Shown piece by piece: positions 14,637 through 58,353 of a DNA stretch of 64,000 nucleotides; the stretch's first letter is position 1; each line of letters opens with the position of its first letter. Source of the DNA: Patescibacteria group bacterium (GTDB lineage: Bacteria; Patescibacteriota; Minisyncoccia; Phycocordibacterales; JAKAEA01); the NCBI GenBank assembly GCA_040387855.1, contig JAZKCY010000001.1, positions 25,334 through 89,333 on the forward strand, in the 5' to 3' direction. Made by a program: the position numbers and the translations under genes. The notes under the pieces are model-generated. The model had not been told where the DNA came from. It worked only from the letters and a program-made list of their open reading frames with translations, and ran no database searches.

Positions 14637-14674
14637 GGTTGTACTTTAAAGAACCTCCTTGTTCTTTACCTGTT

Positions 14675-28272: not shown

Positions 28273-29493
28273 CTAAACTTGAGGTTCATTTAGTGTACTT
28301 TGTGGAGTAATTCTTAGACTCCATAGTGAGAAATCTTTCTTGTTACCAAAGATAAAGAAGTTCCCATCAGGACTTATTGTGGGATTAATAACATCGATTG
28401 ATTGTTTATAGGTTGCTACCAATGAGCCTACGAGTTCTGGTGCTGTTCCGGGTATTATTTTATAAATAGCATCATTTGATGATGTGAATCCTAAATACCA
28501 TACATCAGGATATGCTCCATCAAAGAGAGATTCGGGTACTGCACAATAAAGTGTATCTGTTTGTACTGTTGACCATGTACATTTATCTGTAAGCGTATTT
28601 ACACCAGTATTAATTACCGTAGCATCTTTAAGAGACAGAATATTTAACGTGTTGTTACTATCTGAATATGCTAAATGAGTCGCTGTAGGATTCACAAGAA
28701 CGGTTAATCCTCTAATATCACCTAAGACCTTTTTAAATTCTTGTGTTTTTGGGTTTAAAAAGTACGCGAACCCATCATCGGTGGCTGAAGCATTGGTCGC
28801 CAACATAATAGTATTTGCTTCTGGCCAAGATACTATCCATTCGCTCACTGATGAGTCAAATATCTTTTTTGGGTTAGAACCGTCATATGCTGCAACTATC
28901 CCATCGGCTCCATCAGCAGTTTTTTGTATATAAAATATCTCTTTACCTGAAGGTGAGTACGCAACAGATCGAATATTTATTGGATACGAAGTAAACTGCG
29001 CTGTAGATGTGGCTGATGTAGAAAAGACATATCCTGATGTGTAAATGTCAGCATGTGCTTCATCAACATAACGTAACAATACATTCTTTCCTTGAGGATC
29101 CATTTGAGATTCATACACAGTAGGGACGGTTGTATTAACAACTTTTCTAAGCTCCCCTGTTCCAGGATATACATCACTAATATGTCCTGTTCCTCGCTCT
29201 GTATATCGTATGATGGTCGTGCTTGCAATGCTTACTGCTGCTCCACCTGCCACTGGTGCAGATGATACTTTCACAAGAATACTTGCTAAAAATGGATTTT
29301 GATTTGGTGTGGATGTTGTTGACTGATTTGGTGGAAGACTTGCAACTGGTCTGTCTCCTGAAATTGGAAAATCTGTCGTAATAACATCCGTAGAATCATT
29401 TTGATTTGATGAACGGAAAAATAAAAAATATGTAGCAATCCCAACTGCAAGTATAAAGAATATGATTCCTCCAATAAATAGTTTTTTTAACAT
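28273..29493 (-). CDS. membrane-anchored beta-propeller (TolB/PD40-like) protein
   Basis: N-terminal signal-anchor; repeated blades with SPSGKEIFY and SPDGNFFIF-type PD40 motifs; last gene of the T4SS-like array. Confidence 0.5.
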   Translation of the reverse strand: MLKKLFIGGIIFFILAVGIATYFLFFRSSNQNDSTDVITTDFPISGDRPVASLPPNQSTTSTPNQNPFLASILVKVSSAPVAGGAAVSIASTTIIRYTERGTGHISDVYPGTGELRKVVNTTVPTVYESQMDPQGKNVLLRYVDEAHADIYTSGYVFSTSATSTAQFTSYPINIRSVAYSPSGKEIFYIQKTADGADGIVAAYDGSNPKKIFDSSVSEWIVSWPEANTIMLATNASATDDGFAYFLNPKTQEFKKVLGDIRGLTVLVNPTATHLAYSDSNNTLNILSLKDATVINTGVNTLTDKCTWSTVQTDTLYCAVPESLFDGAYPDVWYLGFTSSNDAIYKIIPGTAPELVGSLVATYKQSIDVINPTISPDGNFFIFGNKKDFSLWSLRITPQSTLNEPQV

Positions 29494-29505
29494 GTTCGCA
29501 CTTTA

Positions 29506-31551
29506 TTATATCGCAGGTTTACCAAATCCTTCACGAACACGGTTGATAACTTGCTTGGCTGTGTAGTTTGGTCTCCAGTTATTAATATCATTTTTCATTG
29601 CTTCTTGTATAAGTGAGAGATAACCATCATTAGCATATTCAGGATGTGGATAGGTCACGCCAGTTATAGGAGAACTAACTGTTAATACATTACGAGCATC
29701 AACAATTCCTGTTGGGAATGAGTTTTGGGTAACAATAATATTACTTGAAGATTCCTTCCCTGTTCCACCGGGAGTAATACTTCCTTCTACCAATAGTGCT
29801 TTTGACCAGTTAAAGACGATATTATCTTTCAATGTTAAGTCATGAATTCCTACTGCAAGATGTGCATAATCCCCCACTCCACTTTCCAATTGTATTGCAG
29901 GAAAATTTGATCCAGTTCGGTTGTTTGCAATAATATTTCCTGAAGCCACAGTATTACCCCCTGGTTTAATATTTCCAAAAATAATACCAAACCCTCGCGG
30001 TTCACTGCCAATATTCTTAGCACCCACCATTACGTTGTTTGTAATTCGTCCTACTACACCATTTGGATGTCCTGTTCCACTACCGTTAACGAGCCCAAAT
30101 GATAAGTGGATTGCATTGTCATAAAAGAGGTTGTTTTCTACCACCCCACCTGCTCGTGCCTGAAGACCATGGCTTGATGCAAAAGCAAAGATGTTATTTC
30201 TGACCGTTACATTCCAATTGAGTGCATGAATATATGCATTGTGATTTCTTGTGGTTTCCCCTCCTCCATCGAGACGTCGTCCATTACTAAAAAACACATT
30301 ATCTTCTAATAGAATTCCATCAGTCTGATCTATATATAAACCTGAAGAGTCTCCGCCTGTTTTTGAATGACTATTTGTAATAACTGAGCGTCTCAATTTG
30401 AAGTTTCGGTTTTTATTATTGATTACAGAACCATCATTAGTTGTCATATTCAAGGTGATTCCCATTCGGAACCCTTCGATATAGGCATCCTCAATTGTTA
30501 CATCGTGAACTCCCTGACATCCTTCCATCGCAATTCCTTGATTGTTTGAAGTAGTTGTATGAAGATGAATACTTTGGATGAGGATATTACCAGTATTTGA
30601 GCAAATTCGAATTCCAGTTCCTTGTCCAGGAATTGAAATCTTTGGACGTGGTCCTGAACCATACGCCAACACCTTAACACCGTTTCTTCCGGTAAGATCA
30701 AATCCGGATGTCCATGTATCTCCTCGTTTGAGGTAGATAAAATCAGGGTTCTTTGTAAGAGCTTTGTTTATGCTTGAAATTGGGGCTGCCTCGGTTCCGG
30801 GATTACTGTCATTACCCGATGTGCTAACATATACTTTTTTACTTGTTGGTGATGGTGTGACTTGGGTAAAATTGTTTGAGTATGCTGGTTCTGGTTGTAC
30901 TGGTGGAGGTGTGTATGATGGACCTGGTTGTGTTCCACCTGGAATTGTTCCCCCTCCTCCTGTATTAGGGTTATAAACACCTGTGCTCCCTCCTGGAAGG
31001 CCCAACGGTCCACCACTGCTATCGCCAGGTACGTAGATTCCTGCATCTTCAGGATTATATTTAGGTAGTTCATATGATGCGGGTGTTCGTGGATTCAACT
31101 TTGGTCGAGGTACTCCTGGAACCTGTCTTCCTACACTTTCAGCGCCCTTTGAAACTGTATCTGGGTTAAGAGAAGAAGGGTTGAGTGTATAGATTATGAG
31201 CCAAGATCCAATTACGAGAATCAATCCCCACAAGGTTCTTTTAATTATATCTTTACCTTCTCTTTTACCTGTAATAGCATCACTCGACATATAGAGAATT
31301 CCACCATATACAAGCATAAATACAGCAATAACTCCTGATATGCTCACGAGAATTCTGTACATCGAATTTGCATAGACACTCAATCCATTTTCAGCAGGTA
31401 ACGTTGCTCCAGTTTCTGTAGGAAGTGGTGCTAGGAATTGATATGCTTCTCCTACTTCCCCAGCTGCAAATACATGAGCGATTGGAAAAAGTAGTGCACA
31501 CACTACTCCTATAACTACAATCTTAAAACTATTATTGAGTAGGTGTTTCAT
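29506..31551 (-). CDS. fusion protein: VirB2/TrbC-pilin-like N-terminus, Pro/Gly-rich linker, C-terminal right-handed beta-helix domain
   Basis: signal peptide then two hydrophobic helices separated by a short loop (ILVSISGVIAVFMLVYGGILYM, LWGLILVIGSWLIIYTLNP); about 120-aa P/G-rich linker; beta-helix with NHNAYIHALNWNVTVRNNIF, HGLQARAGG, paralogous to 5154-8150 and 8227-10932. Confidence 0.6.
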   Translation of the reverse strand: MKHLLNNSFKIVVIGVVCALLFPIAHVFAAGEVGEAYQFLAPLPTETGATLPAENGLSVYANSMYRILVSISGVIAVFMLVYGGILYMSSDAITGKREGKDIIKRTLWGLILVIGSWLIIYTLNPSSLNPDTVSKGAESVGRQVPGVPRPKLNPRTPASYELPKYNPEDAGIYVPGDSSGGPLGLPGGSTGVYNPNTGGGGTIPGGTQPGPSYTPPPVQPEPAYSNNFTQVTPSPTSKKVYVSTSGNDSNPGTEAAPISSINKALTKNPDFIYLKRGDTWTSGFDLTGRNGVKVLAYGSGPRPKISIPGQGTGIRICSNTGNILIQSIHLHTTTSNNQGIAMEGCQGVHDVTIEDAYIEGFRMGITLNMTTNDGSVINNKNRNFKLRRSVITNSHSKTGGDSSGLYIDQTDGILLEDNVFFSNGRRLDGGGETTRNHNAYIHALNWNVTVRNNIFAFASSHGLQARAGGVVENNLFYDNAIHLSFGLVNGSGTGHPNGVVGRITNNVMVGAKNIGSEPRGFGIIFGNIKPGGNTVASGNIIANNRTGSNFPAIQLESGVGDYAHLAVGIHDLTLKDNIVFNWSKALLVEGSITPGGTGKESSSNIIVTQNSFPTGIVDARNVLTVSSPITGVTYPHPEYANDGYLSLIQEAMKNDINNWRPNYTAKQVINRVREGFGKPAI

Positions 31552-32524
31552 AATTAATTAAAATGTTTTGTGATTCTGATTGCAAAATGTTTGGAATACT
31601 ACTTACCTCTACTCCCACCTGGGTTTTTCCTGAAGTAGTTCCATTCGGACGACGTAGTAGGAGTGTGCTTTCTGAGGTATTCAAATCTGTACCATTGATA
31701 CTCCACACAAAAGAAAGTGTAGGTGTTCCTCCTCTAAAGTCTGTAGAGAAGTTGTAAGGTACGGCACGAAGGCTTATTTCTTCTTGCTCAAGACTACCCT
31801 GTGTACTTAGTGCTCTGTTGTAGAGGGTCCCATAAAGCGGACTCTGTGCATAAAATATTACTGATGGTTGTACGGGTGTAAGATTTAAAGACTGTGTTGC
31901 AATTTGTGATCCGTCAGATGTGGATACAGATACAGAAATATTTATGTTTTTGATTACTATGTCGCCTGTTACTGTAATAGTGTCTTTCCCATAGCCAGAG
32001 GCATCATTTATGAGTTTTCCATCATACTGCCATCGATAAACAAGTTTTTTTCGATCAACTGGTTTATTGCCTACTCGAATATCTGGAATTGCAGTTACTA
32101 CTACATTGCCTTGATATGGAAACTGAGCTTTCCCTTTAAAAAAAGGTGGAGTATATGAATCTGCTTGCCAAATAAGATCTACCGTTGATGGTTGGATGAT
32201 GAAACTTGCATCAGCATTTCCTGCCACAACAGTAACTATTGTCTTAGAATTAGCAGATTGACCTTCTAATGTAAAATAGCGCTCCCCTATTCCTTCAAGT
32301 TTTTTTACGCCATTAACTTCCCAGGTAATTAATGTTGTATTGAGATCAAATGAAAATGATTCTGCGGTAAATGTTACTGATTGACCGGGCTTTGGAGTTT
32401 GTGGACTAGCTCGAAGTGTAATTGATTCACTAAATGAAGGTGGTGTCTGTGCTAAACCAACATGAGCAAAACTCATGCTAAAAATAGAAACAATAATTAA
32501 GGTACTTAAACCCTTCTTAAACAT
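31532..32524 (-). CDS. secreted protein with Ig-like beta-sandwich domains, unknown function
   Basis: N-terminal signal peptide, Thr/Ser/Val-rich beta-strand pattern, no catalytic motifs. Confidence 0.45.
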   Translation of the reverse strand: MFKKGLSTLIIVSIFSMSFAHVGLAQTPPSFSESITLRASPQTPKPGQSVTFTAESFSFDLNTTLITWEVNGVKKLEGIGERYFTLEGQSANSKTIVTVVAGNADASFIIQPSTVDLIWQADSYTPPFFKGKAQFPYQGNVVVTAIPDIRVGNKPVDRKKLVYRWQYDGKLINDASGYGKDTITVTGDIVIKNINISVSVSTSDGSQIATQSLNLTPVQPSVIFYAQSPLYGTLYNRALSTQGSLEQEEISLRAVPYNFSTDFRGGTPTLSFVWSINGTDLNTSESTLLLRRPNGTTSGKTQVGVEVSSIPNILQSESQNILINYETPTQ

Positions 32525-32552
32525 ATAAATAAGTATACACTAGTGTCCGCTG

Positions 32553-33686
32553 TTACGCTGCTCTTTTATTCCCCAATGCTGGCATAGGTCGAGATGTCTG
32601 TGGTCGAATTTGCATTGGTTTACCCTGTTGTTGAGGTTGTCGAATATTTTGGAGTGGTTGTTGACGCATCATGGGACGCTCAGACGACTGAGAAGATCGT
32701 GACCCACTATTTCCATCATAATAAGAAGTATTTTCTCGCTGCCGTTCAACTGCATAATCATCTTCTTCATCTTGCATGCCTTGAAGTTGCTGATTATATT
32801 CAATAGCCATCTGCCGTTTTTGCTCATTTTTAGCATGCATAGCAGCTGCTTCTGCTTTCATTTTTATCATTTTATTCCTTGTACGTGTAGCAATGAAGGT
32901 TGTCATTATCGTACCTACAATAGTCCAAGGAATCCAACTAATAAATGGCAGCCAGCTCAATATTGAACATATAATATATACACCAAAGATTTTTGGCATC
33001 AATATTAATTTCCCAAACTTTTTTAAAAGTACGGCAACCCACAGAATAGAATACATAATACCTGTAAGGGTACCCATAAGTGGTAGAAGTCCGATTGCCC
33101 AGAAAATAACTGAGCAAACTGCCAATCGAGCAGTAATCGACATGTTTTTCATGAAGCCTTTGGGAGTAAAATGGATGTGTTTAGCCATTTTCTTAGCAGC
33201 ACCGCGCACTCGTGATCCAGCACTCTTTATGTTTTTTCCAGCATTTTCGGCAGATGCACTGAGTTTTTTTGTGGCTTTTGCTGTTTCTTCTGCTAATTTT
33301 CCTCCAGCCTCCAGTCCTTTTCCTGCAAATTGTGCACCGATTGAGGCTCCTTTACCCAATGCTCCTACAGCAATCATAGGCACACCCACGACAGCACCTA
33401 CTGCAGTAGCACTAGCAGCTTTACCTGCATTCATGAGTGCATCACTGCCTGCTCCAGTGGCTTTTGCTGCTGCTTGTACACCTTTACCAACGTTTTTCAC
33501 TCCCTTTCCTGCAATCTCTCCTGCTTGGCTTGCATGTTTTGCAGTTGCAGCTGAATGTTGCACCATTGAACCAACACGTTCAACGTTTCTGCCTGCATGA
33601 TCTACACGTTGAGACATGTGATGAGCTTCCCGTTGGCGTGGGCTTTTTTCAAACTCAGATGGTTCTGATCGTTTTATTCCATCCAT
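32553..33686 (-). CDS. membrane protein with A/G/K-rich N-terminal region, three or four TM helices, Gln-rich C-terminus (T4SS accessory candidate)
   Basis: low-complexity AGKGVKNVGKGVQAAAKATGAG region; TM segments ITARLAVCSVIFWAIGLLPLMG etc.; directly downstream of the VirB4 gene. Confidence 0.4.
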   Translation of the reverse strand: MDGIKRSEPSEFEKSPRQREAHHMSQRVDHAGRNVERVGSMVQHSAATAKHASQAGEIAGKGVKNVGKGVQAAAKATGAGSDALMNAGKAASATAVGAVVGVPMIAVGALGKGASIGAQFAGKGLEAGGKLAEETAKATKKLSASAENAGKNIKSAGSRVRGAAKKMAKHIHFTPKGFMKNMSITARLAVCSVIFWAIGLLPLMGTLTGIMYSILWVAVLLKKFGKLILMPKIFGVYIICSILSWLPFISWIPWTIVGTIMTTFIATRTRNKMIKMKAEAAAMHAKNEQKRQMAIEYNQQLQGMQDEEDDYAVERQRENTSYYDGNSGSRSSQSSERPMMRQQPLQNIRQPQQQGKPMQIRPQTSRPMPALGNKRAA

Positions 33687-33696
33687 AGACTAATGT

Positions 33697-35502
33697 TTAA
33701 TTTCCCAATTCTTCTTTTGCTTTTCGAATAGCGAGGATTTGAGATGGATCTGAGGTAATGATTTGATCTTCTGTATATGAAGCAATAATTTTGACAGCTA
33801 CGTGTTTTACACCGGCAAAGAAGATCCCTTCCCCTACTCCTGATTCTAAAAGAAGATATTTTTCTTCATCTGTAAGATTGAACGTTGCCTGAAGCTTATC
33901 AATAGATGTTGGAGACTGCTTCAAAAGCATTTGGATAGATGAGTTGGTAATAATTGGCATACCGTAAGGAGATTTTAGGAAGTCATCTACGTCTTGAGTA
34001 ATTGTCGCGAGTCCAAGATAATATTTTCGTCCTCGTTTTGCTAAAGAAAGCAAGAATGAAGCCGTATCTTCTGATTTCATCATCCACCAAGCCTCGTCGA
34101 TAACAAGCAATCGCTTTTTAATATCACGTCGAATTGCATTCCAAATGTAGTGAGTCACAATATACATTGCGATTGGTTTCAATTCGTCTTCCATGTCTCG
34201 CACTGAGAACACTATGAACTTTTTGTTCATATCTACGTTTGTAGGACGGTTGATAAATCCTGACCATGTTCCTTTTGTGTATTTGGTCATTCGTTGAGCC
34301 AGTGACTCCCCTCCTTCCATACCTGCAAGCACCAATTCGAAGTCTGAAAGTAGAGGTGGTTCTATATTTGAGAAATCTGATTCAGGTGTAATATCTTTAA
34401 GAGCATATGTTTCGGTAATTGCTCGATCAATAATTGCATCTTCTTCAGGTGAAAGACCTCCAAGCATGATTCGGAAGAGTCCTACGAGGTTAATGATATT
34501 TGATCGCAATACTGATGAAGATGATTCATCTTCATGGATAGGTGGAAGATCAAATGGATTGATATGGTGCTCTGAGTTTAAAGAAATATTGAAATAGCGG
34601 CCTCCAGTAGCTTCTGCAAGGTATTCATATTCTCGCTCTGGGTCAATTACAATCACATCAGCATCAAACATTAATGTACGCACAATTTCGAGCTTTGTAG
34701 CGTATGATTTACCAGATCCAGACTTAGCAAATGTGATTGAGTTGTAGTTTTCAAGAGAAAAACGATCAAACAACACAAGACTAGAATTATGACGGTTAAT
34801 TCCATAGAGTATTCCCTTATCTGAAGTAAGATCGAATGATACGAATGGGAAAATACTTGAAAGTGGTGTTGAGTTAATTTTAGAATTTACGGCAAGACCA
34901 TCGTTTCCAAGTGGGAGCATACTTTTAAAGCCTTGTTCTTGTTGAAACAGAGCAGGTTTAATGTATACAAGCTTTGATTCAAGAATAGATTTAATTTCTG
35001 ACTCTATCTTATCGAGTTCTGCATCAGATTCACCATAAATAGACAAATAAAGGCCAACATCAAAGAGTTTCTCTTGTGCTTGTTGAAGATTGTCTCGAAG
35101 GTTTTCAAGATCCTGATATGCAGTATCAAGCATAGGGTCACGTACTAGGCCCTTCTCTTCTCGAATAGAAATCTGACTTTGAATTTCTGCTACCTTCTTT
35201 TGAAAGTGTCGGAGGATTGTAGCTGTCTCAATTGGGTGAATAAAAATAGAAATATCAAAAATCCGATCGAGATTAATGATTGGAGAGAACCAGTTTTCAG
35301 AAAGAAATCGTGGATATGAAATAACAAAAAATGTTCGAACTATCTTGTCCCCTAAGTTTAGGGATCGAGGTGAAATTTTTAATGCAGAAGGAGCAATAAT
35401 ATCTTTAAGTTCTAATGCAGATGCTTCGTAAATTTGCTGAGGTAACGCAGAACTAATATCAGCCTGTGAATCTTTTTTATTAAATAAGTTAAATAGTCCC
35501 AT
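33697..35502 (-). CDS. VirB4/TrbE-family ATPase, C-terminal 601-aa portion (second half of a split VirB4)
   Basis: Walker A AKSGSGKS, Walker B LLVIDEAWWM, conserved FQQEQGF and IAPSALK..P..L..GDK motifs matching Gram-positive VirB4 homologs (Tn916 Orf16 / TcpF / PrgJ type). Confidence 0.8.
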   Translation of the reverse strand: MGLFNLFNKKDSQADISSALPQQIYEASALELKDIIAPSALKISPRSLNLGDKIVRTFFVISYPRFLSENWFSPIINLDRIFDISIFIHPIETATILRHFQKKVAEIQSQISIREEKGLVRDPMLDTAYQDLENLRDNLQQAQEKLFDVGLYLSIYGESDAELDKIESEIKSILESKLVYIKPALFQQEQGFKSMLPLGNDGLAVNSKINSTPLSSIFPFVSFDLTSDKGILYGINRHNSSLVLFDRFSLENYNSITFAKSGSGKSYATKLEIVRTLMFDADVIVIDPEREYEYLAEATGGRYFNISLNSEHHINPFDLPPIHEDESSSSVLRSNIINLVGLFRIMLGGLSPEEDAIIDRAITETYALKDITPESDFSNIEPPLLSDFELVLAGMEGGESLAQRMTKYTKGTWSGFINRPTNVDMNKKFIVFSVRDMEDELKPIAMYIVTHYIWNAIRRDIKKRLLVIDEAWWMMKSEDTASFLLSLAKRGRKYYLGLATITQDVDDFLKSPYGMPIITNSSIQMLLKQSPTSIDKLQATFNLTDEEKYLLLESGVGEGIFFAGVKHVAVKIIASYTEDQIITSDPSQILAIRKAKEELGN

Positions 35503-35515
35503 TCTCGTTAATATG

Positions 35516-36154
35516 CTAGTTTATTTTGATTGGCTTTTCTGTGTCTCCAGGATTGAATAACTTATAGAAAAGCTCTACTACCTCTTCTGTTCCGAGCTGC
35601 ACGACTCTAATCCCGCATCGCACAAGTCCCTGCTCTACAACTGATACACGCTCTTCGAGCTGTGCTCTATTTTCTTCATATATTTCATCATCCCGGCGCT
35701 TTACTTCTGCGGCTCCCTTACTTCGCTTGAAAAAGCTTAATGGACTAGCCCCCTGACTAATAGAAGGGCTATAAGGAACAACAATAAAGAAACTCTTAGT
35801 CATAATATTTGTAGTTTCAGTAAAGTTCTTTATGAAGTTTATATATTCTTGGGTCTGAATTTTCAAAAGATCAATAACCTGTTCTTTAAGGCGGTTCTCA
35901 AGAAGGGCTAGATATGGCCGGATATCAAGCTTTCGTGATTGTACAAAGATCTGAATAGAAAAATCTAATGAGTTTAAAAAGTCCTGGAACTGATAGAGAG
36001 TGGCATTTTGCTCTTCTTCAGATTTCAACGCAAAGTTTACTGAAGATGCTAAAACAATAGCTCGCATAGATCCATCTTTAAGGATTGCATATCCATCACG
36101 TATTTCTTTAATGGGAACAAATTCTTGAGTTGCCTTGCCAGGTTGTGAAGCCAT
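35516..36154 (-). CDS. VirB4 N-terminal domain encoded as a separate 212-aa ORF
   Basis: FVPIKEIRDGYAILKDGSMRAIVLASSVNFALKSEEEQNATLYQFQDFLN parallels the conserved N-terminus of Gram-positive VirB4 proteins; stop TAG 13 nt upstream of the ATPase ORF start, different frame. Confidence 0.6.
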   Translation of the reverse strand: MASQPGKATQEFVPIKEIRDGYAILKDGSMRAIVLASSVNFALKSEEEQNATLYQFQDFLNSLDFSIQIFVQSRKLDIRPYLALLENRLKEQVIDLLKIQTQEYINFIKNFTETTNIMTKSFFIVVPYSPSISQGASPLSFFKRSKGAAEVKRRDDEIYEENRAQLEERVSVVEQGLVRCGIRVVQLGTEEVVELFYKLFNPGDTEKPIKIN

Positions 36155-36203
36155 GATTACATTGTACCATGATCATGAACTACTCTCGTATATAAAATGT
36201 GAA

Positions 36204-36656
36204 TTACTTTTGGAGTGGACTCTTACTTCCCTCTTTTGTAACGGGATTTAAGGCTTCTTTTGTATCGAGACTCCAGCTTAAATCTTTTAGTTTACTATCT
36301 GAAAGCTTTGGAATAAATGCAGATGTTGGATCTGAATCTACAGCTGCATCTTTTTTAGCTGCCATTATTTGGCGTTGTTCATGTCTCCAGATATAGAGTT
36401 TGGGATTTACTAAATAATTAAATGCTGATTCTAATACTACAATGAGAGGCTTGTTGTTAATTCTATAGAATGCAAACATTCCTGAAATTGCGCAGATTGG
36501 AAGTATAACTACGAGTGCTAGTAAGAAGCTTGGTATAAAAAGATAGGCAATAACAGACATCCCTGCCCCTCCGGCAAGATAAATAAACTGTTTGAGGGTG
36601 AGTGGCCCAAAGATCTTATCTTCAACTTCTATAAATTGAGGAATTTGAAACCGCAT
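36204..36656 (-). CDS. PrgI/VirB3-like small membrane protein
   Basis: 150 aa; conserved F.PLTLKQF.YLAGGAG core followed by two TM helices; immediately upstream of VirB4 as in Gram-positive T4SS. Confidence 0.6.
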   Translation of the reverse strand: MRFQIPQFIEVEDKIFGPLTLKQFIYLAGGAGMSVIAYLFIPSFLLALVVILPICAISGMFAFYRINNKPLIVVLESAFNYLVNPKLYIWRHEQRQIMAAKKDAAVDSDPTSAFIPKLSDSKLKDLSWSLDTKEALNPVTKEGSKSPLQK

Positions 36657-36696
36657 AGTTGTTCTATGCGGTTCATTATATCATATTTAATTTTTA

Positions 36697-37575
36697 TTAT
36701 GCTGTGGGTGGTTCTCTGTAGGGATCAGATCCATCTCTAGGTTTATTCTTCGCGCCCAAGTTCATTTCTTCTGTTGGAACTCGTGATGTTCCTTGGAGTT
36801 TTGATTGAAATATACTTGTAGGTGTAGGACCTGTTGGGATATTTTGTGGTGGCTCAGGATTAATTCGTTGTATTGGAACTTGAACTGGTGTTGATACTGG
36901 TTTTACAGGTTCAATATGTGGAGTTGGGATTGGCGCCGGTCCTGACATAAAGTGATCTCTCAATAAGTGGTCTGAAGGAGTGGATGGAAATACGGGTGGA
37001 GGTGTTGGAACGCCTGTATTTATAGTGATTTTAGGATATGTTGTGCTAGGACTTGAGTGTGCTGTATCAGTTGAAGGTCTGTTTTTGGGCATTAATGGCA
37101 CTGGGCCATCAGTCTTATATCCCCCAACGGTTGGTGAGTCTGGAAAGTTAAGAGTGATTTTTGGTCGAGGTGCAGTTTGTTGTGTAGAAGATGGTGAAAC
37201 AGCACCTGTACTTAGTGGATTCACTGCTTGTGCAGTATCCCCTATTTCTCCCATAGCCTCAGCCATGAGCATAAATACTGGTTCTAAAAGTATTGCATCG
37301 ATATCAATGAGAAGATCTTGCGCATCATCCTCATTAAGATTGTATCCATTTTGAATTTCAACAAGAAATTCTTGAACCGGCATGATTCCAACAAGAAGTG
37401 CAAATACTAGTTGATCAAAATCTCCTAACTTAATTGGGGGAATGTAGAAATCATCTGCAATACCGTAAATTTCTGATGTTACTTCTTCAGACATAATGAA
37501 TTCCTGAAGTGATGGAGGAAGTTCATTAAATGCTGCATCTAGTTGTTCGGAGGTGTATTTCATAATTATAGCCAA
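36697..37575 (-). CDS. hypothetical protein with globular N-domain and Pro/Thr-rich C-terminal tail
   Basis: 292 aa, no TM helices, long P/T/S-rich low-complexity C-terminus; overlaps VirB6-like gene end by 10 nt (operonic). Confidence 0.4.
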   Translation of the reverse strand: MAIIMKYTSEQLDAAFNELPPSLQEFIMSEEVTSEIYGIADDFYIPPIKLGDFDQLVFALLVGIMPVQEFLVEIQNGYNLNEDDAQDLLIDIDAILLEPVFMLMAEAMGEIGDTAQAVNPLSTGAVSPSSTQQTAPRPKITLNFPDSPTVGGYKTDGPVPLMPKNRPSTDTAHSSPSTTYPKITINTGVPTPPPVFPSTPSDHLLRDHFMSGPAPIPTPHIEPVKPVSTPVQVPIQRINPEPPQNIPTGPTPTSIFQSKLQGTSRVPTEEMNLGAKNKPRDGSDPYREPPTA

Positions 37576-40541
37576 TTTTCCTTACCTTTACCTGTGAGTT
37601 GTTTGTGGATGTCTCTCATTCGTTTGAGCTCTACCTCTGCAGTCTTTCGTGCCTTGAGTAATGCCTTTGAAGCATCATCTGTACCAGTAACCCCAGTACC
37701 TGCTGCAACAGCTGCTTCAAGCTGAGCTCGTTCACGAGAAGGTGTACCCGCACTACTGTCACTATATTTATCAGCAGTCTTTTTAAGGTGTTGACCAATT
37801 TCAAGTATTTGTTCTGGAGTGAGTTTTCCTGACTTACGTGCAGCTTCAGCTTGTTCATACGTAAGAAGGGTCGCGACTTTTTCTTGTGTGAGAGTTCCTG
37901 CTTTCAATCCCTTGATCATGTTTGGATTAGCCTTAGCATCAGTAATGATTTTCTTGATTTCTTCTTCAGATTTATTATCTGCAACTGCATCATCAAGTGC
38001 ATCCTGAAGATCTGCGAGCTTGTCTTCATCTGATTTCTTGGTGTTTCTCATTTGATCCATATGTTTCTGAGCTACTCTACTGTAGCCAGCCATACCTCCA
38101 CCACCTCGAGCTACCGTGATTGCTCCACGTGCAACACCAGCAGTAGCTCCTACTCCCGCTCCAAGTGCTGCACCTGCACCACCACCACCTGCTATTTGTC
38201 CTGCTACAGCACCTGTTGCAGTATAGTTAACAACACGAGCTATCTGTTGTTTCCAAGTCTTATTTCCAAGCTGTGCAGCATATGTATTTCGTTTTTCCTC
38301 AATATTTCGAACAGCTCGTCGTTGGAGTTTCTTAAGATTGTCTTCTTCTGTTTTAATTGCTTTGCTTGCTTTCTCAACTTGTTCAGGTGTTGCCCCGGCA
38401 GCAATCGCCTTTCTTTCAACGTCCTTAAGATCCTTAATTGCTTTTTGTGATGCCTCAATATTATTCCAATCATCACCACCAATCATTCCTTTGGATCCAA
38501 AGCGTGCTCGTATTGCTGCACCCACACGAGTTGCACCACCTCGATCTCTTCGAGCCTCTATCTTTCGATCTTGTTCTTCTGCTCTACCAGCATAACCTCC
38601 CTTGTTGCCTCCCTTTCCTAGCACTTTGCTCATACCACCAACATTTCGGAGATCGTATTCTGAAGATGCTCGCTTTTGAAGAAGTTCCAAACGCTGCTTT
38701 GCTCGTGAATCCCCTGCTTTTGCAGCAAGTTCAAGCGTTGATTTTTCTTTACCTAATCTATATTGAGCATATCTACCTACAGTATTTCTACCTGCAGATG
38801 CTCCCAATCCAGCGGTAGCCATACCTGCAGCTCCTCGTGCACCCCGCGCTGCTCCCCGAGCTCCGTTTATTGTACCTTGTCCCATGCGTCGAACTGCATT
38901 TGATGAAATACCTTGTACCTTATTAAATGCTGCTCCTGTCATTCCTCCAGCACCAGATGCAACTGATGTTGCTAAAACTGCTGCTGCATTTATAAGACCA
39001 ATAAGTAATACGAAATTAAAGATTTGTGATGCTTCGTTTGTTTCACCTGTTTTTGGTGAAAATCCGCTTGCAAGTGTTCCTGCAATTTGTGTTGATCCAG
39101 AACTGGTATTTACATCAGTTTTGCCTTTAATTTTAAGTTGCTCAGCTAAAATGAATACTAATAGAATGAGAATCATGTACAGTGGTGCGAATACCAACTG
39201 AGACATAAGAGTACTCCACCACTTCTTTGCCCAACCATTTGTTGCAGGAAGAATATAACCGAAATATCCTATAGGAGAAAGGATAAGAAGGAAAAGTAAT
39301 ACAATAAATCGAATGAGTAAGAGTGCTGAAATATAGAGAAATGTTAACCCTACGGCAACGAGAAATACAGATCCACCAATTCCTAAAATAAGAATTGAGT
39401 TCCATCCTCCAGTCAAAAGATTAGCATGGCCGTTTTTGGGATCATACAGAGATGTAATGTTTAAGTACCCTGCCATTTTATTAGAAATATTTCCAATAGT
39501 ATCTGCATTTCCTGTCCCCTCAGTACTTTTTGCAAATTCTTTGTGGAACTGTGTCGTGAGAATATTCGATCCGTCGATGAGAACTTTTGTAAAAAACAGA
39601 CTGAAGTTGATAAGAATTCCAAAGATAATCAGATTACGAAGTACTCGTTTTGTATCAATATTGCTAAATCCTAAAATAGTGTTAACTGCTATATATATGA
39701 GTATATATATGAGCGTCATATTGCAGAGATCTCGAATAAGTGCCCAGCCATAATTAATACCACTCAAAGTCTGAACCTTGTCAGCCATTGTGGTGATCGT
39801 AAATTGAATTGTGTAGTTTAAAGCAAGACCTGTAATACCTACAAACCATGCTGCTGCTGAAATTGCAGTGAATGCCATCCAGGCTGCGACATATTTAAGA
39901 CAGGCTTCAAGATTTACTGGAGTTGTACTCAATTCGATTCTACATGCTGCTTCAGCAAGGGCCATACCCTGTCCAGCTTTATCAAATTTTGCACCCGATT
40001 CATCAGTTGGATCTATCATCTTGGCCATCTGATTTCTATCGTTGGTACCATTCGCAAGTGCAGAATTAACCCAATTAATGTTAGTAGCCATTTGAGCAGG
40101 ATCTTGGGTGATCTTGAAATCCTGCATGTCATTCATATAATTGGTAAGTGCCTGCATATGAGGTCTCATTCTCTCTGCAAGATCTTTATTTCCAGACGTA
40201 ATAGCATTATTGTATTGCTTTGCTGAGGTTACATAAAGATTGTGAACTTTGTCATATTGAGTTAAAAACTGCATACACATATCATTGGGAGGATTTGTAC
40301 AGTGTGGTCGTACTTCATATCCATGGGCAAATCTACCACCTTGATTTCCTCCTTTTTGTTCCCCTTCAATTAATGCTCCGGGTATTAGAACTCGTGCACC
40401 TCCAATAGTGTCTTGATAACCAGGTACTTTATTTCCTATACGGAAGTCATAGAAAATGTCAGCTTGTGCACTATTTGCTCCAGCAACAAAGAGTGTAATT
40501 GCTAGTACGAATATATTAATGAGTAGAAATAATTTCTTCAT
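37566..40541 (-). CDS. VirB6/TrbL-like polytopic membrane protein with extracellular N-domain and ~450-aa disordered A/G/K/R-rich C-terminal tail
   Basis: signal peptide; at least 6 TM helices incl. LSPIGYFGYILPATNGWAKKWWSTLMSQLVFAPLYMILILLVFIL; C-terminus low complexity with coiled-coil segments. Confidence 0.6.
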   Translation of the reverse strand: MKKLFLLINIFVLAITLFVAGANSAQADIFYDFRIGNKVPGYQDTIGGARVLIPGALIEGEQKGGNQGGRFAHGYEVRPHCTNPPNDMCMQFLTQYDKVHNLYVTSAKQYNNAITSGNKDLAERMRPHMQALTNYMNDMQDFKITQDPAQMATNINWVNSALANGTNDRNQMAKMIDPTDESGAKFDKAGQGMALAEAACRIELSTTPVNLEACLKYVAAWMAFTAISAAAWFVGITGLALNYTIQFTITTMADKVQTLSGINYGWALIRDLCNMTLIYILIYIAVNTILGFSNIDTKRVLRNLIIFGILINFSLFFTKVLIDGSNILTTQFHKEFAKSTEGTGNADTIGNISNKMAGYLNITSLYDPKNGHANLLTGGWNSILILGIGGSVFLVAVGLTFLYISALLLIRFIVLLFLLILSPIGYFGYILPATNGWAKKWWSTLMSQLVFAPLYMILILLVFILAEQLKIKGKTDVNTSSGSTQIAGTLASGFSPKTGETNEASQIFNFVLLIGLINAAAVLATSVASGAGGMTGAAFNKVQGISSNAVRRMGQGTINGARGAARGARGAAGMATAGLGASAGRNTVGRYAQYRLGKEKSTLELAAKAGDSRAKQRLELLQKRASSEYDLRNVGGMSKVLGKGGNKGGYAGRAEEQDRKIEARRDRGGATRVGAAIRARFGSKGMIGGDDWNNIEASQKAIKDLKDVERKAIAAGATPEQVEKASKAIKTEEDNLKKLQRRAVRNIEEKRNTYAAQLGNKTWKQQIARVVNYTATGAVAGQIAGGGGAGAALGAGVGATAGVARGAITVARGGGGMAGYSRVAQKHMDQMRNTKKSDEDKLADLQDALDDAVADNKSEEEIKKIITDAKANPNMIKGLKAGTLTQEKVATLLTYEQAEAARKSGKLTPEQILEIGQHLKKTADKYSDSSAGTPSRERAQLEAAVAAGTGVTGTDDASKALLKARKTAEVELKRMRDIHKQLTGKGKENWL

Positions 40542-40542
40542 G

Positions 40543-42459
40543 CTATTGAATAACCTGCACTTGTCGAACTATCTTTGAACTTGAACCATTCACATCGGTA
40601 ACACTATATGTAATGTTGTGAACTCCTGGCAGACTTGTATTTATTGTACCTGTTCCTTCTACGGTAATATTTGCAGAAATATCTACACCATTATTATCTA
40701 CTGCAGTTGCACCTGGATCAATAAATTGCTGACCAACATTAATAGTTGTGTATGAAACTCGTCCCTGACTATCTGCTTTTAATGTAATCTTTGGCTTTGC
40801 ATACTGATATGCTTCAATCTCACCTATATATAATGGACCTCTTCCAATTCCTTGTACACGCACAACTCGTCCTTTCACGGCAGGAACAAAGAAGATGTTT
40901 GCCTGACCAATAAAGTCATGTTTGATTGCTTCTGAACTATGAACTATTTTTCCATCTTTATCGAGAATATCCACACGGAATGAGATTTCTTGATCGTTGA
41001 GTGGTGGATTTGAATTTCGTTGGTAAATTATGATTTTTCCAAACGTATAGTCTTTAGTAAGACGGACTTCCAAATATGGATCGTCTACAGCTGCTGTTCG
41101 AGCTCCGTCATATGACGCACCATCTTCTTCATCAAGAAAACCAGAATCACTTTCATCAGTTTTATCCCCGTCTATCAATTTATCGTAATCAACCCTTGTT
41201 CTTCCCGCCCCATCTTTCACATGGCCAGTTCCTTTTACGGCAACGTTTTCTTCAGGATTTATATTTTCATCTTCCTCTACTGTTGAGCCATTTTGATTTT
41301 CAGCGTTTTCTCGGGCTGCATCAGCAGCTCCGTTTCCAAGATCTGTAAAACCCTTTAAGTAATCATCTCGAAGATTATCAAACGGTCGAGTTGTTCCCCC
41401 ATTTCCTGTATTACCATGTCCGGTTGAACCAAGAAGACCGTGTGCTCCGGCTATTGTTCGAGTAAAGATTTGGTTTGCCAATGCATAATAAAGTTTTTCA
41501 AAACTATCAACAAATCCTAGTTGATCTTTTTCTATTCCCAATGCCTGATTGAGAGATTCACCAATAGTACTTCCTGGAGTTTTGATTTCACAATTGTCAC
41601 CTTCATCTGTTTTAAATACTCGAGCTGGTTTTTTACCAGGTTGAGTTGGTGGGTTTTTTGACCCCCCGTATTCTGTATACGTAGTATTATCTTTTCGCTT
41701 ACATTCTGTCCATGATAGAAAGCCTCCTCCCCAATTGAGTTTCATTTCTTCTAATAAATTTTTGTCACCAATTCGAACAGCAAGTTCTGATTGGGCACTA
41801 AGATATGCCCCCTGATAGGTGTTCTTAGGCTTTTGAGTCATTTCAAACCATCCTGCCCATCCACCCTCATCAAAATCTTGATAAAATTTATCTACATTTT
41901 GAACAACCTGCGTCAACGTACATTGGGCTTGTTCAGCATATTGATTTTGGTAGGAATAGTTGAGAGCAAGAGCTATTTTTATATCTATTTGAAAAGGTTT
42001 ACACATGAAGCCTAAGGGACTTCCTAAAATAAACTCACCTGCCACTTGGTCTGCTGCATCAATAAAAAGTTGTTGTGGATCAGTTACAAATGATGGACTT
42101 CCGTTGAAGCCACTATTGATCCATGTTACGAGAGAATCAGTAACCTTAGCGATAACCATCTTAACAACAGGTTGCAGCAAACTGTCTAAAATGCAATCTT
42201 TAAAAAAGCCGGCATAAACTGAGCCATCCTTTACTGCAGCACTAATTGCTTCTAATTTTGCTACAGGCACTCCATATGCTTTTGTTGCTGCAGATTCACC
42301 TTTTGACCATCCTAGTGCTACTACGAAATATCCTCCACATTCTGCCCAGCCGGCTTTTGCTTCCTTTGGTTTATCAACAATAAAACTTATAGATGCAACA
42401 ATAGCTACTATAAGAAGTAGGGTTGTTGATTTTTTAAGTATCGTTAATAAATTTTTCAT
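40543..42459 (-). CDS. secreted protein with C-terminal discoidin-like and Ig-like domains
   Basis: signal peptide; C-terminal region with F5/8-type-C-like and bacterial Ig-like beta-sandwich patterns (TINVGQQFIDPGATAVDNNG..ITYSVTDVNGSSS); adjacent (2-nt gap) to VirB6-like gene. Confidence 0.45.
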   Translation of the reverse strand: MKNLLTILKKSTTLLLIVAIVASISFIVDKPKEAKAGWAECGGYFVVALGWSKGESAATKAYGVPVAKLEAISAAVKDGSVYAGFFKDCILDSLLQPVVKMVIAKVTDSLVTWINSGFNGSPSFVTDPQQLFIDAADQVAGEFILGSPLGFMCKPFQIDIKIALALNYSYQNQYAEQAQCTLTQVVQNVDKFYQDFDEGGWAGWFEMTQKPKNTYQGAYLSAQSELAVRIGDKNLLEEMKLNWGGGFLSWTECKRKDNTTYTEYGGSKNPPTQPGKKPARVFKTDEGDNCEIKTPGSTIGESLNQALGIEKDQLGFVDSFEKLYYALANQIFTRTIAGAHGLLGSTGHGNTGNGGTTRPFDNLRDDYLKGFTDLGNGAADAARENAENQNGSTVEEDENINPEENVAVKGTGHVKDGAGRTRVDYDKLIDGDKTDESDSGFLDEEDGASYDGARTAAVDDPYLEVRLTKDYTFGKIIIYQRNSNPPLNDQEISFRVDILDKDGKIVHSSEAIKHDFIGQANIFFVPAVKGRVVRVQGIGRGPLYIGEIEAYQYAKPKITLKADSQGRVSYTTINVGQQFIDPGATAVDNNGVDISANITVEGTGTINTSLPGVHNITYSVTDVNGSSSKIVRQVQVIQ

Positions 42460-42463
42460 ATAG

Positions 42464-43528
42464 TTAATATAGTCCTAATGCCATTTGAAACCCAGGCTCA
42501 TCTTGTCTATAGGTAACATTAAATTTTGTATATACTCCTTGCATCGATTTTAAAGAGACCTGAATTTGCTCCATAGTTTTAATATATGTTTGGATTCCGA
42601 ATACTGAAGACACTGGATCAGTAAACATTTGCATAATGAGCTGATCAGAATAAACAGCATTTAAAAATCCATTCATGAGATCAACATGTAATGTACTCAT
42701 ACTATAAGGAACTGAAGTTGTCTTTAACTCTCGTATAATATTTTCGTATGAAGCAATGATTTTAGGGATCTTTTCTAAATATTCTGGACTCTGTGTATTT
42801 GAAGCCTGCCCAGCAAGGTAAAGTTCATTAATAATTATGTCCCCTTCCATTTGATTAATGCTGTTTTTCGCAAAAATACTTCCAATTGTATTTCCGTAAT
42901 TTTTTATACTAGTGCTCGTATCATCAATAACTGCAATATTGTTTATTGTAAATCTCTGACCACCGCTTACAGATCCTTCATAAGTGGCTAGAACTTGTTG
43001 AATGAGTGCTGTTTGATCAGTTTCATTTACTTCGCCTGAAGTCTGTTTGAGTTTCATATATTGCTCAAAGAAGTCTCTACCAAATCTTGCTGTGATTGAG
43101 CTGTCGATTTCTCCAGATGCTGCTGTACTACTTGCTGTTGTGGTCGTGTTTGATATTGCTGTTGCAAGCTTGTCATCAGGCCCTGCAATCATTGGATCTC
43201 TTTGAGCTTTTACTTCTGCTCCGTCTGAAGTGCCGTCTCCATCGGTATCAGCAAGCTTTGGATTTGTTTTCCATAGTACCTCTTCCCAATCTTTTAGTGT
43301 GTCATTGTCTGTGTCATTTTCTAGAATTTGGTTTTTAATTACATTTGAAGTATCAGCAATGAGATTTGTGGGCTGACTTTCTAAATTAATTTTTGATGAA
43401 TAGATAGCAGCAAAAGCAATACTCCCAACGGCGATGCCGCAGGCTCCAAATAATGTTATTACCTTTTTTGATGGCAGTACCAAAGTGATATTATTATGCC
43501 TTATCATTATAGCAGGCTTCGCTTCCAA
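42464..43528 (-). CDS. membrane-anchored protein with thrombospondin type 3-like Ca-binding repeats
   Basis: N-terminal TM anchor; DTDNDTLKD...DTDGDGTSDGAE DxDxDG repeats; first gene of the co-directional array. Confidence 0.45.
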   Translation of the reverse strand: MEAKPAIMIRHNNITLVLPSKKVITLFGACGIAVGSIAFAAIYSSKINLESQPTNLIADTSNVIKNQILENDTDNDTLKDWEEVLWKTNPKLADTDGDGTSDGAEVKAQRDPMIAGPDDKLATAISNTTTTASSTAASGEIDSSITARFGRDFFEQYMKLKQTSGEVNETDQTALIQQVLATYEGSVSGGQRFTINNIAVIDDTSTSIKNYGNTIGSIFAKNSINQMEGDIIINELYLAGQASNTQSPEYLEKIPKIIASYENIIRELKTTSVPYSMSTLHVDLMNGFLNAVYSDQLIMQMFTDPVSSVFGIQTYIKTMEQIQVSLKSMQGVYTKFNVTYRQDEPGFQMALGLY

Positions 43529-43542: not shown

Positions 43543-44688
43543 TTGGGGATAAATAGAGTGTGTTATACTTTTTCTATGATAAAAAAAGTTGGGATATTTC
43601 TTTTTGCTGCCACCACTGTATTTATTTTTTCTAAAAGTGTGTCAGCCTATGTTTTTTCACAAACCTTAAAAGTCGGACAAACACATCCTGATGTTAAGGA
43701 ATTACAAAAGATTCTTAATCAAGATCCACAAACACGAATAAGCAGTACTGGAGTTGGTTCTTCAGGACAAGAAACTACTTATTTTGGCCAAATGACCTTC
43801 CAAGCAGTGATAAAATTTCAGAATAAGTATGCTTCAGAGGTACTTTTGCCTGCTGGCTTAACAAAAGGTACTGGCTTTGTGGGTGCTGCAACAATAAAAA
43901 AGCTTAATTCATTAAGCGCTGGTGGACAAACCACTACAGTTACTAGTCAAAATGGCTTAAATCAACAATCAATTGATCCACTTGCAGCCTTTTATGTTCC
44001 CTACGCTGAACGAATCAATATATATGCTACTGATTATAAGTTTGATGAAGTCAAAAAAACTGTTATTTCTAGGGTTAATAATGCAATTAGTACTGGTAAA
44101 AACCCTGATTTAAGCGATATTGTAAATAAACCAGCTTCTGCTATGGGTGAAGTTTTCCTTCAGGGGGCTTCTTCTGCTGTCGTTAGTGTGGGTGGAACCC
44201 TCACCCTTAATGGAACAGGATTTACCTCAAATAACACTCTATATATAGGAGATACCTATGCCGTTAAGAATGTGGCTTCAAATGGAGGTATTCTAAACAT
44301 AAAAGTCCCTCCAGTTCCCTTTGGCAGATATGATATCGCTATAAGAAATAGTAAGGGATTAAGTAATACGGGAGTTATTGTTGTTACAAACGACGGTAAA
44401 AGCCATGTAAAAATAGATTCTATTGAGCCTGCAAAGATTTCCTATGGGCAAACTCTTACGTTAAAAGGCTCTGGTTTTACATCATCAAATGACGTTATTA
44501 CTATTCATGGTATTCAAAAAGGAGTGGTTTCTTCAGATGGCACCACGATTTCATTTGCTTTTACCCCTGAAAACATGAGAGAAATTGCAAAATATAGCAG
44601 AAACCAAACAGATATGTCGGTTCCTATCACTATTGTGAATGCGAATGGTGTATTTGTTCACCCTTCTGGTTTTAGATTAAGTTACTAA
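43543..44688 (+). CDS. secreted protein with peptidoglycan-binding domain and two IPT/TIG-like Ig domains
   Basis: signal peptide; PG_binding_1-like VGQTHPDVKELQKILN...AVIKFQNKY; repeated LTLNGTGFTSNNTLYIGD / LTLKGSGFTSSNDVITIHG. Confidence 0.5.
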   Translation: MGINRVCYTFSMIKKVGIFLFAATTVFIFSKSVSAYVFSQTLKVGQTHPDVKELQKILNQDPQTRISSTGVGSSGQETTYFGQMTFQAVIKFQNKYASEVLLPAGLTKGTGFVGAATIKKLNSLSAGGQTTTVTSQNGLNQQSIDPLAAFYVPYAERINIYATDYKFDEVKKTVISRVNNAISTGKNPDLSDIVNKPASAMGEVFLQGASSAVVSVGGTLTLNGTGFTSNNTLYIGDTYAVKNVASNGGILNIKVPPVPFGRYDIAIRNSKGLSNTGVIVVTNDGKSHVKIDSIEPAKISYGQTLTLKGSGFTSSNDVITIHGIQKGVVSSDGTTISFAFTPENMREIAKYSRNQTDMSVPITIVNANGVFVHPSGFRLSY

Positions 44689-58349: not shown

Positions 58350-58353
58350 CATT

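Follow-up and report, generated by a model that had tools for sequence, protein, structure and literature searches.

What is the function of a type IV secretion system (T4SS) whose genes lie beside the replication origin of a bacterial chromosome, with no conjugation genes nearby? We consider this question for a 64-kb stretch of DNA (the window) from a 981,549-bp contig of a Patescibacteria group bacterium, in which positions 28273-43528 are tiled by eleven open reading frames (ORFs) on the minus strand, here numbered g1 to g11 from the 28273 end. An earlier reading of the letters alone (the original prediction) had seen in this array the core of a Gram-positive-type T4SS and had suggested for it a non-conjugative role on the chromosome. 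We find this suggestion supported, and strengthened by an array that keeps its place in 43 of 43 related loci and by the lack of conjugation parts in the window. In our assessment the array is likely the Paceibacteria version of the Patescibacteria-clade T4SS, with regard both to its identity and to a non-conjugative role in interaction with a host cell. Judged from its sequence, it appears to be a vertically inherited, operon-like chromosomal module next to oriC that derives from the conjugation machinery of monoderm bacteria (the MPF-FATA type).

The eleven ORFs encode, from g1 to g11, proteins of 406, 681, 330, 377, 601, 212, 150, 292, 991, 638 and 354 amino acids, and the spacing between consecutive ORFs, again from the 28273 end, is 12, -20, 28, 10, 13, 49, 40, -10, 1 and 4 nt, where negative values are overlaps. 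This tiling bears out the eleven co-directional minus-strand genes that had been proposed; the accompanying claim that they are spaced by 20 nt or less with a sole exception of 40 nt is slightly off, as gaps of 28 and 49 nt also occur. For g11 and g8 the longest ORF probably begins too far upstream, and public gene calls give 339 residues for g11 (start 43483, V4519_00380) and 288 residues for g8 (likely start 37563, V4519_00365). A scan for promoter-like and terminator-like sites found no excess within the array over shuffled sequence, a result that says nothing about operon structure. In base composition the array equals the housekeeping genes (GC 0.387 versus 0.376; GC at third codon positions 0.252 versus 0.268).

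The identity of the system begins with g5 (33697..35502), which profile and PDB matches identify as a VirB4 ATPase made up of the middle and C-terminal P-loop domains. It scores 378.9 bits against the NCBIfam model of the CD1110-family VirB4 (NF045971, cutoff 325) over model positions 181-732 of 752, 265 bits against the VirB4 model of Mycoplasma integrative conjugative elements (ICEs) and just 122 bits against VirB4_CagE. It also matches Pfam P-loop_TraG (2.6e-26), and its best solved relative is the C-terminal domain of a Thermoanaerobacter VirB4 (PDB 4AG5, 2.6e-42), with TrwK at 8e-9. Both nucleotide-binding motifs are intact, a Walker A of AKSGSGKS at residues 259-266 and a Walker B of LLVIDE at 465-470.

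Directly upstream of virB4 lies g6 (35516..36154), a 212-residue ORF that the original prediction had left unrecognised. Profile matches make it a TrsD-like, free-standing homologue of the VirB4 N-terminal domain: it matches the Mycoplasma ICE VirB4 model at positions 102-239 (4.3e-14), the TrsD model NF041427 (4.5e-7) and positions 2-126 of the CD1110 VirB4 model, and its orthologues bear the TraC-like family PF26593 in precomputed Pfam annotation. Together g6 and g5 tile a full-length Gram-positive-type (MPF-FATA) VirB4, covering model positions 2-126 and 181-732. Because all 43 related loci keep the two as separate ORFs, g6 having 205-274 residues there, this is a stable split of the TrsD/TrsE type, and a frameshift as its origin is ruled out by the same conservation. 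On the other side of g6, which is all that lies between it and virB4, stands g7 (36204..36656), a small PrgI/VirB3-like membrane protein with two transmembrane (TM) helices (TM-like segments at residues 24-57). It matches PF12666 PrgI at 45.6 bits (gathering cutoff 27, E 1e-11) and is found in all 43 loci. The VirB4 and PrgI/VirB3 assignments of the original prediction thus both pass profile searches.

To place this core among known T4SSs, we compare it with published surveys. Relatives of the VirB4 occur in at least 578 species-representative genomes, and the best 80 of them are 78-90% identical, under genome labels that include Parcubacteria, Paceibacterota, Zambryski-, Taylor- and Campbellbacteria, with many Candidatus Saccharibacteria or plain 'bacterium'. 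We read the source genome, from these sequences, as one of Parcubacteria/Paceibacteria type and not as a Saccharibacterium. Across 3,035 genomes, Quinonero-Coronel et al. 2025 (PMC12102498) find 2,425 VirB4 proteins that make up a clade of Patescibacteria within MPF-FATA. Judged by identities and model scores, the VirB4 of the window belongs to this clade, since it is 78-90% identical to Parcubacteria/Paceibacteria VirB4 proteins and its best models are of MPF-FATA types. The same survey names TrsD as the most abundant associated component, places PrgI/VirB3, VirB6 and VirB2-like pilins near virB4, and lists dnaA, dnaN, rnpA, ksgA and rpmH as abundant neighbours of virB4 loci in Paceibacteria and Microgenomatia. 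The window resembles these systems in that an MPF-FATA-type VirB4 stands beside genes for TrsD-like, PrgI/VirB3, probable VirB6-like and VirB2-like pilin proteins, on the chromosome, next to dnaA, dnaN, rnpA and ksgA, with no relaxase or type IV coupling protein (T4CP) nearby; for both, the role proposed is non-conjugative. A 2025 FEMS review gives a matching picture of the Patescibacteria T4SS (PMC12857230).

The link to a host comes from Southlakia epibionticum. According to Wang et al. 2023 (PMC10633639), transposon sequencing (Tn-seq) shows its T4SS (SEML1_0006-0019) to be essential for epibiotic growth, which agrees with the importance for epibiotic growth in Saccharibacteria that the original prediction had mentioned. 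That system resembles Gram-positive conjugative ones, its pilins are essential, and as described there it has no recognisable T4CP or relaxase, from which its authors derive protein export or another non-DNA role (PMC10633639). For the window, assembly of the apparatus, the direction of transport and the substrate are what we infer, and a role in host contact would follow by analogy with the essential S. epibionticum system.

Is the array a resident of the chromosome or a visitor? We compared it with 43 loci from related species that have full 10-kb flanks and were chosen by VirB4 similarity. The order pcrA-ksgA-[TIG]-g11-g10-g9-(g8)-g7-g6-g5-(g4)-g3-g2-g1-yidC-rnpA-dnaA-dnaN is essentially invariant in all 43, with minor variation, and the pcrA to dnaN order with the array between is also seen in more distant loci. 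In the window itself Pfam places dnaN, dnaA, rnpA and yidC beyond the g1 end of the array and ksgA and pcrA beyond its g11 end, and together with a cluster of DnaA boxes this confirms the housekeeping flanks that had been described, an origin region and ksgA-pcrA; the synteny comparison extends them to the same housekeeping genes in every related species genome of the set. All eleven genes are positionally conserved, including seven unnamed accessory genes. Median identities to the window proteins are 81% for VirB4, 66% for TrsD, 63% for DnaA, 56% for PcrA, 51% for DnaN, 50% for PrgI, 49% for KsgA and 26-36% for the envelope proteins, a contrast between VirB4 and housekeeping genes that is inflated by the choice of loci; the T4SS core nonetheless appears clearly to be under strong constraint. 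Because its order between housekeeping genes is fixed in 43 of 43 genomes, we take the array to be an ancestral chromosomal module and not an ICE.

We now turn to the parts that a conjugation system would bring. The Pfam scan took in every ORF of at least 90 residues in the window that was not inside, or largely overlapping, a longer ORF, and all searches for missing parts covered the 64-kb window. Among these ORFs there is no VirD4/TcpA-type T4CP and no match to any relaxase (MOB) family; a repeat search finds no oriT-like repeat near the array, and the large unannotated ORFs hold no convincing P-loop. Within the window, then, the statement that VirD4, a relaxase, an oriT-like repeat and a mobile-element integrase are lacking nearby is borne out, and neither of the findings named in advance as refuting the original prediction turned up there. 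The one secretion ATPase outside the array, at 15350-17026 (558 residues), is PilB-type (433.6 bits on the PilB model, below cutoff) and neither VirB11 nor T4CP; its gene stands alone, followed by ruvB, yebC and ruvC without other pilus genes.

No lytic transglycosylase, CHAP, NlpC or peptidase domain is encoded inside the array, and the window differs from the S. epibionticum and Patescibacteria-clade systems in having no peptidase or lysozyme gene directly downstream of virB4. A protein with an M23 peptidase and two LysM domains (DipM/NlpD-like) is encoded at 49022-50128, 5.5 kb from the array, and lies within 10 kb of virB4 in 7 of 43 loci. It is a candidate stand-in for a VirB1-type hydrolase, with a role in cell division equally compatible. 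The candidate tested for VirB8, a component marked by an N-terminal TM helix and a following NTF2-like alpha+beta domain, proved to be a four-helix bundle and is not VirB8-like.

Comparison with characterised systems helps to show what has been kept and what has not. Among MPF-FATA systems of Firmicutes, the closest model for the VirB4 of the window is that of the CD1110 family (C. difficile CTn2), and the split into TrsD and VirB4 is common to the window and pGO1 (pGO1/pSK41, TrsC-TrsD-TrsE). With pCF10 (PrgH-PrgI-PrgJ) the window shares the order VirB6-like, VirB3-like, VirB4, which we take to be the pCF10 arrangement. Relative to these Firmicutes systems the array is without a T4CP (PcfC/TrsK), a relaxase, a PrgK/TrsG-type hydrolase and a PrgL-type VirB8-like protein; unlike Gram-positive systems, which have no VirB2, it has a protein with a VirB2-like domain, and it is chromosomal and apparently vertical rather than borne on a plasmid or ICE. 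Bordetella Ptl, Brucella VirB and Helicobacter ComB are likewise VirB4-based and have no adjoining VirD4-type T4CP, and they serve protein export or DNA uptake, not conjugation. They differ in belonging to the MPF-T type of diderm bacteria, in having an outer-membrane core of VirB7/9/10 and in their unrelated accessory genes, and none of the three is known to be essential for growth.

A machine without relaxase or T4CP could also serve to take up DNA, in the manner of Helicobacter ComB or archaeal Ced, importing host or environmental DNA as a source of nucleotides or genes. Such a role needs neither of the two proteins that the window lacks, and the P-loop region of the VirB4 weakly matches CedB (1.1e-8) and CedD; in addition, the 2025 survey reports that Patescibacteria have no de novo nucleotide synthesis and that T4SS loci of ABY1 sit with comF, recG and radA (PMC12102498). 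These Ced matches, however, are confined to the generic P-loop part and lie far below cutoffs, and no ComB- or Ced-specific component was found in the window. Furthermore, competence in S. epibionticum depends on ComEC, whose loss abolishes transformation and leaves viability unaffected, yet the T4SS is essential (PMC12857230). For these reasons we consider DNA uptake an improbable function for the array.

We return to the non-conjugative, host-interacting T4SS that we prefer, and to the members of the array that would form its channel and its membrane partners. The largest, g9 (37566..40541), is identified by hydropathy and orthologue matches as probably an extended VirB6-like polytopic membrane protein: a signal peptide and an ectodomain of ~190 residues precede six TM segments (218-528) and a hydrophilic, coiled-coil, Gly/Ala-rich tail of ~430 residues. 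Profile searches give no direct family match for the window protein itself, so that of the original VirB6-like call the polytopic topology and the orthologue matches stand and a direct match does not. Of 33 such orthologues, five match TrbL/VirB6 PF04610 (best 6e-5), four the CD3337/EF1877 family of mobilome membrane proteins and two the ICE TM protein Mbov_0396. Residues W266, NFS312-314, D323, N326 and R411 are invariant, and g9 is present in all 43 loci.

Two smaller proteins flank the core. Downstream of virB4, g4 (32553..33686) is a small polytopic membrane protein whose conserved part (~170-320) has three TM helices; the window copy carries an extra low-complexity, Ala/Gly/Lys-rich N-terminal extension, and the repeat search finds a 58-nt direct repeat internal to the gene (33271-33514). 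It has no family match, and positional homologues, found by jackhmmer and invisible to tblastn, follow virB4 directly in 36 of 43 loci. Upstream of prgI, g8 (36697..37575) is a cytoplasmic accessory protein of an uncatalogued family. Its members begin with one to three helical domains of ~100 residues, one in g8 itself, continue with a linker rich in Pro and end in a DPYRE(P) motif. Neither Pfam nor NCBIfam has a match for the window protein, nor does Pfam for its 43 positional orthologues or for the 81 positional orthologues of g4 and g8 scanned together. The g8 homologues, again visible to jackhmmer and not to tblastn, occur in 43 of 43 loci, and 38 of 44 sequences carry the motif DP[YF]RE at a distance of 2-5 residues from the C-terminal end. 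Searching 1.84 billion representatives with a single sequence returned 101 representative clusters at E<1e-3, and two members with 20-22% identity are encoded immediately upstream of prgI in other T4SS loci (L083:8001-9296 and L084:8001-9089). In T4SS loci of Patescibacteria the gene of the DPYRE family always immediately precedes prgI.

What does the machine present on its surface? The gene that NCBI names 'pilin', g2 (29506..31551), encodes a signal peptide and two TM helices (residues 1-125), a Gly/Pro-rich linker of 105 residues and a right-handed beta-helix (~230-681). Its N-terminal part is a VirB2-like T4SS_pilin domain (PF18895), which the window copy matches at 25.2 bits, slightly below the gathering cutoff of 26.6, and which 32 of 33 orthologues match (best 4.7e-10), two of them also matching TrbC/VirB2; on the strength of these orthologues the earlier pilin-like call holds. 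The orthologues have 140-499 residues and are conserved only over the ~118 N-terminal residues of the pilin domain. The C-terminal ~450 residues of the window protein resemble beta-helix proteins from unrelated phyla (Planctomycetes, myxobacteria and archaea; 33-40% identity), and the full fusion is shared with just one other protein (P0086), located in the orthologous locus. The one relative with this fusion of T4SS_pilin and right-handed beta-helix lies at L082:4773-6908. In L084 (13283-14416) and two further orthologues the same pilin domain is fused to a VanY/M15 peptidase instead. Such fusions suggest that the domain, instead of being a plain pilus subunit, may serve to anchor exchangeable, envelope-active modules to the membrane, and the beta-helix ectodomain might have a role related to that of a VirB1-like hydrolase. 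This clade also departs from S. epibionticum, which has an array of six small pilins, in having one pilin-domain gene with a large C-terminal ectodomain.

A similar division into a fixed base and a changing head is seen in g10 (40543..42459), which is TM-anchored and combines a helical, DUF4141-like N-domain of ~330 residues with a variable, adhesin-type C-terminal head. Conservation is limited to the N-terminal part, the C-termini vary, and the gene is present in 42 of 43 loci. The head in the window is discoidin-like plus Ig-like: Bact_surface_Ig-like scores 56.8 bits, and F5_F8_type_C is sub-threshold in the window protein and reaches 1e-11 in homologues. An AlphaFold2 model gives confident C-terminal domains and a helical N-domain of low confidence (pLDDT 40-70), and a profile search of the PDB has no match. 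DUF4141 is matched by 4 of 52 homologues (best 8.8e-9), with no significance for the window protein itself. In conjugative transposons of Bacteroides this family is encoded between traG (VirB4) and traJ (VirB6) (PMC10434189), so that both genes sit inside a T4SS cluster near or next to a VirB6-type gene; g10 differs in its extra discoidin/Ig heads and TM anchor, and the link is one of context, not of mechanism.

The remaining three surface proteins are anchored or secreted. The last of the array, g11 (42464..43528), is a surface protein held in the membrane by a TM helix at its N-terminus; it carries calcium-binding TSP3 repeats (29.6 bits, cutoff 25) and ends in a four-helix bundle. Next to g2, g3 (31532..32524) has a signal-like N-terminus and about three Ig-like repeats, seen as a weak Ig_3 match; the profile of its orthologues weakly matches the Ig-like domains of phage Hoc (0.0014), and it occurs in 43 of 43 loci at 33% identity. 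At the far end g1 (28273..29493), a TM-anchored extracytoplasmic protein (N-terminal TM helix at 5-23) likewise found in all 43 loci, at 31% identity, is probably a beta-propeller, its propeller matches (Beta-prop_THOC3 2.6e-4, PD40 0.019) all being sub-threshold. PDB sequence and profile searches of g6, g9 and g3 returned nothing beyond coiled-coil or weak Ig noise, and none at all for g1. Of the adhesin domains listed in the original prediction, then, the TSP3 repeats and the Ig-like domain of g10 stand, the discoidin domain is sub-threshold here and clear in homologues, and the beta-propeller comes from a weak, sub-threshold match alone.

Drawing these proteins together, we propose that VirB4 (g5), TrsD (g6) and PrgI/VirB3 (g7) would form an energising platform at the membrane and that the extended VirB6-like g9 would be the membrane channel, with the small polytopic g4 and the cytoplasmic, DPYRE-tailed g8 as lineage-specific partners. 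The proteins g2, g10, g11, g3 and g1 would then build an assembly on the cell surface that touches the host envelope and possibly remodels it, and the transported substrate would be something other than relaxase-piloted conjugative DNA. One may tentatively go further and picture a fixed eleven-gene machine in which the 'pilin' is no pilus subunit. A VirB2-like two-helix membrane anchor would instead present exchangeable, envelope-active ectodomains, a beta-helix in the window and a VanY/M15 peptidase in relatives. It would work with the swappable-head DUF4141-like protein and the DPYRE partner family, and the organelle would breach and attach to the host envelope, with variable heads that track host range. 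We regard this extension, drawn from protein architecture, as a possible though doubtful one.

Could the same parts be explained by attachment alone? In that case the VirB4 machine would assemble a VirB2-type pilus or an adhesin-bearing fibre and translocate no substrate. The module does conserve a gene with a T4SS_pilin domain and several proteins of adhesin type whose heads vary, and VirB4 is known to power pilus biogenesis (PMC12102498). The bulky, enzyme-like ectodomains of up to 550 residues on the pilin-domain protein, however, are a poor fit to a canonical helical pilus; the extended VirB6-like channel protein is retained and conserved; and adhesion could be covered by the PilB-type type IV pilus ATPase of the window. 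We therefore judge a purely adhesive organelle unlikely.

Conjugation itself would require that the apparatus be functional for conjugation or mobilisation with its T4CP and relaxase encoded elsewhere in the genome. T4CP genes are indeed often far from virB4: in the survey, VirD4-like T4CP homologues are present in 2,918 of 3,035 Patescibacteria genomes and rarely near virB4 (PMC12102498). Relaxases, on the other hand, are found there in just 103 of the 3,035, also rarely near virB4, and the T4CP homologue of S. epibionticum is non-essential whereas its T4SS is essential (PMC12102498). The borders of the array argue in the same direction. A check for ICE borders returned no integrase other than an Xer-type one, no adjacent tRNA, repeats at chance level and no compositional shift. 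The sole tyrosine recombinase of the window (54302-55252, beside rpsO) is 10.8 kb from the array and of Xer type (232 bits on the XerA model, cutoff 220; the XerD and XerC models score nearly as high), and the tRNA genes of the window lie only at 5029 and 58278-59755. The repeat search gave only short, chance-level matches around the array; a 27-nt inverted pair (85%; 28465-28491 and 44473-44499) was treated as chance, being inside conserved coding sequence. With the array fixed in 43 of 43 species, we hold conjugation to be very unlikely. That the array is the decaying remnant of an integrated conjugative element, which would account for the relaxase, T4CP, VirB1-like and VirB8-like genes absent from it, is effectively refuted, since eleven intact ORFs with intact Walker motifs, a VirB4 78-90% identical across many species and a gene order conserved in most related genomes indicate strong purifying selection.

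Several points weigh against the reading we favour, that of a chromosomal T4SS acting on a host cell. Neither a VirB8-like nor a VirB1-like component was identified inside the array; the matches behind the VirB6 call for g9 are weak and come from a minority of orthologues; and the beta-propeller of g1 and the Ig repeats of g3 are sub-threshold calls. The contrast in conservation between VirB4 and the housekeeping genes is affected by the choice of loci, as stated above. The search for a T4CP and a relaxase spans 64 kb of the 981,549-bp contig, and the 2025 survey places VirD4-like homologues in most Patescibacteria genomes, away from virB4 (PMC12102498). Finally, essentiality is shown for one Saccharibacterium only (PMC10633639), and the role of a Paceibacteria T4SS is assigned by analogy.

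Around the array the window holds a number of further features. Across from g11, and transcribed divergently from it, a gene for a surface protein with PG_binding_1 (PF01471) and TIG/IPT (PF01833) domains lies at 43543..44688 on the plus strand. It occupies the same position in 19 of 43 loci, and L083 also has a PG_binding_1 gene, on the opposite strand, just upstream of the array; this frequent neighbour is possibly an accessory of the system. At the other side, 2.8 kb from the array, six DnaA boxes cluster in the dnaN-dnaA intergenic region (25296..25490), a probable oriC. Allowing at most one mismatch, TTATCCACA has 43 matches in the window against 20.5 expected, six of them in 25296-25490 and two at 26949-26968. 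Far from dnaA, eight DnaA-box-like TTATCCACA sites (at most one mismatch, three perfect) form another cluster at 57549-58674, within and just downstream of the gene for the CCA-adding enzyme (56735-58390), over a stretch that takes in tRNA-Arg and tRNA-Gly.

Positions 14600-15250, which lie between tsaE and the pilB-like gene, stand out as an island with 55-63% GC, against 38% for the genome. Its minus strand encodes, at 14675-15211, a 178-residue protein with a lipoprotein signal (MRVSSLIPAVLLAIVASASVGC), annotated by NCBI as the hypothetical V4519_00260, and a strong GC-rich hairpin terminator follows the ORF at ~14606-14636. The protein forms a singleton cluster with the NCBI record as its only member, and searches of Rfam and the PDB gave no match; either the island was acquired recently from a donor of high GC, or it is a chimera of the assembly. 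Elsewhere, neighbouring genes at 5154-8150 and 8227-10932 encode paralogous secreted proteins (998 and 901 residues) that share near-identical N-terminal regions (…SFTLINADT…PV.GYE…); one of them has a sub-threshold Beta_helix match and neither has an NCBIfam family.

How far does this locus take us beyond what has been published? The locus type, the missing relaxase and T4CP, the pilins, the dnaA/dnaN/rnpA/ksgA neighbourhood and the non-conjugative inference were all published between 2023 and 2025. Our additions are modest: a composition of eleven genes that is fixed in this lineage, the fusions to a pilin anchor, the protein family with a DPYRE tail and the negative outcome for VirB8. Seven conserved accessory items (g1, g3, g4, g8, g10, g11 and the ectodomain of g2) go unnamed in the available text of both PMC12102498 and PMC10633639, and the former reports that no adhesins were detected. 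The window gives no new principle; it is a clean and complete example on a near-megabase contig of Paceibacteria type. The Patescibacteria T4SS is considered among the most intriguing of the T4SS superfamily, the first on which its bearer was shown to depend as on an essential system, and a monoderm may use it to build a pilus. Once a Paceibacteria co-culture is tractable, the conserved unnamed genes, among them the DPYRE-tailed family, the pilin-anchor fusions and the variable-head proteins, could guide structural or genetic work on these systems.

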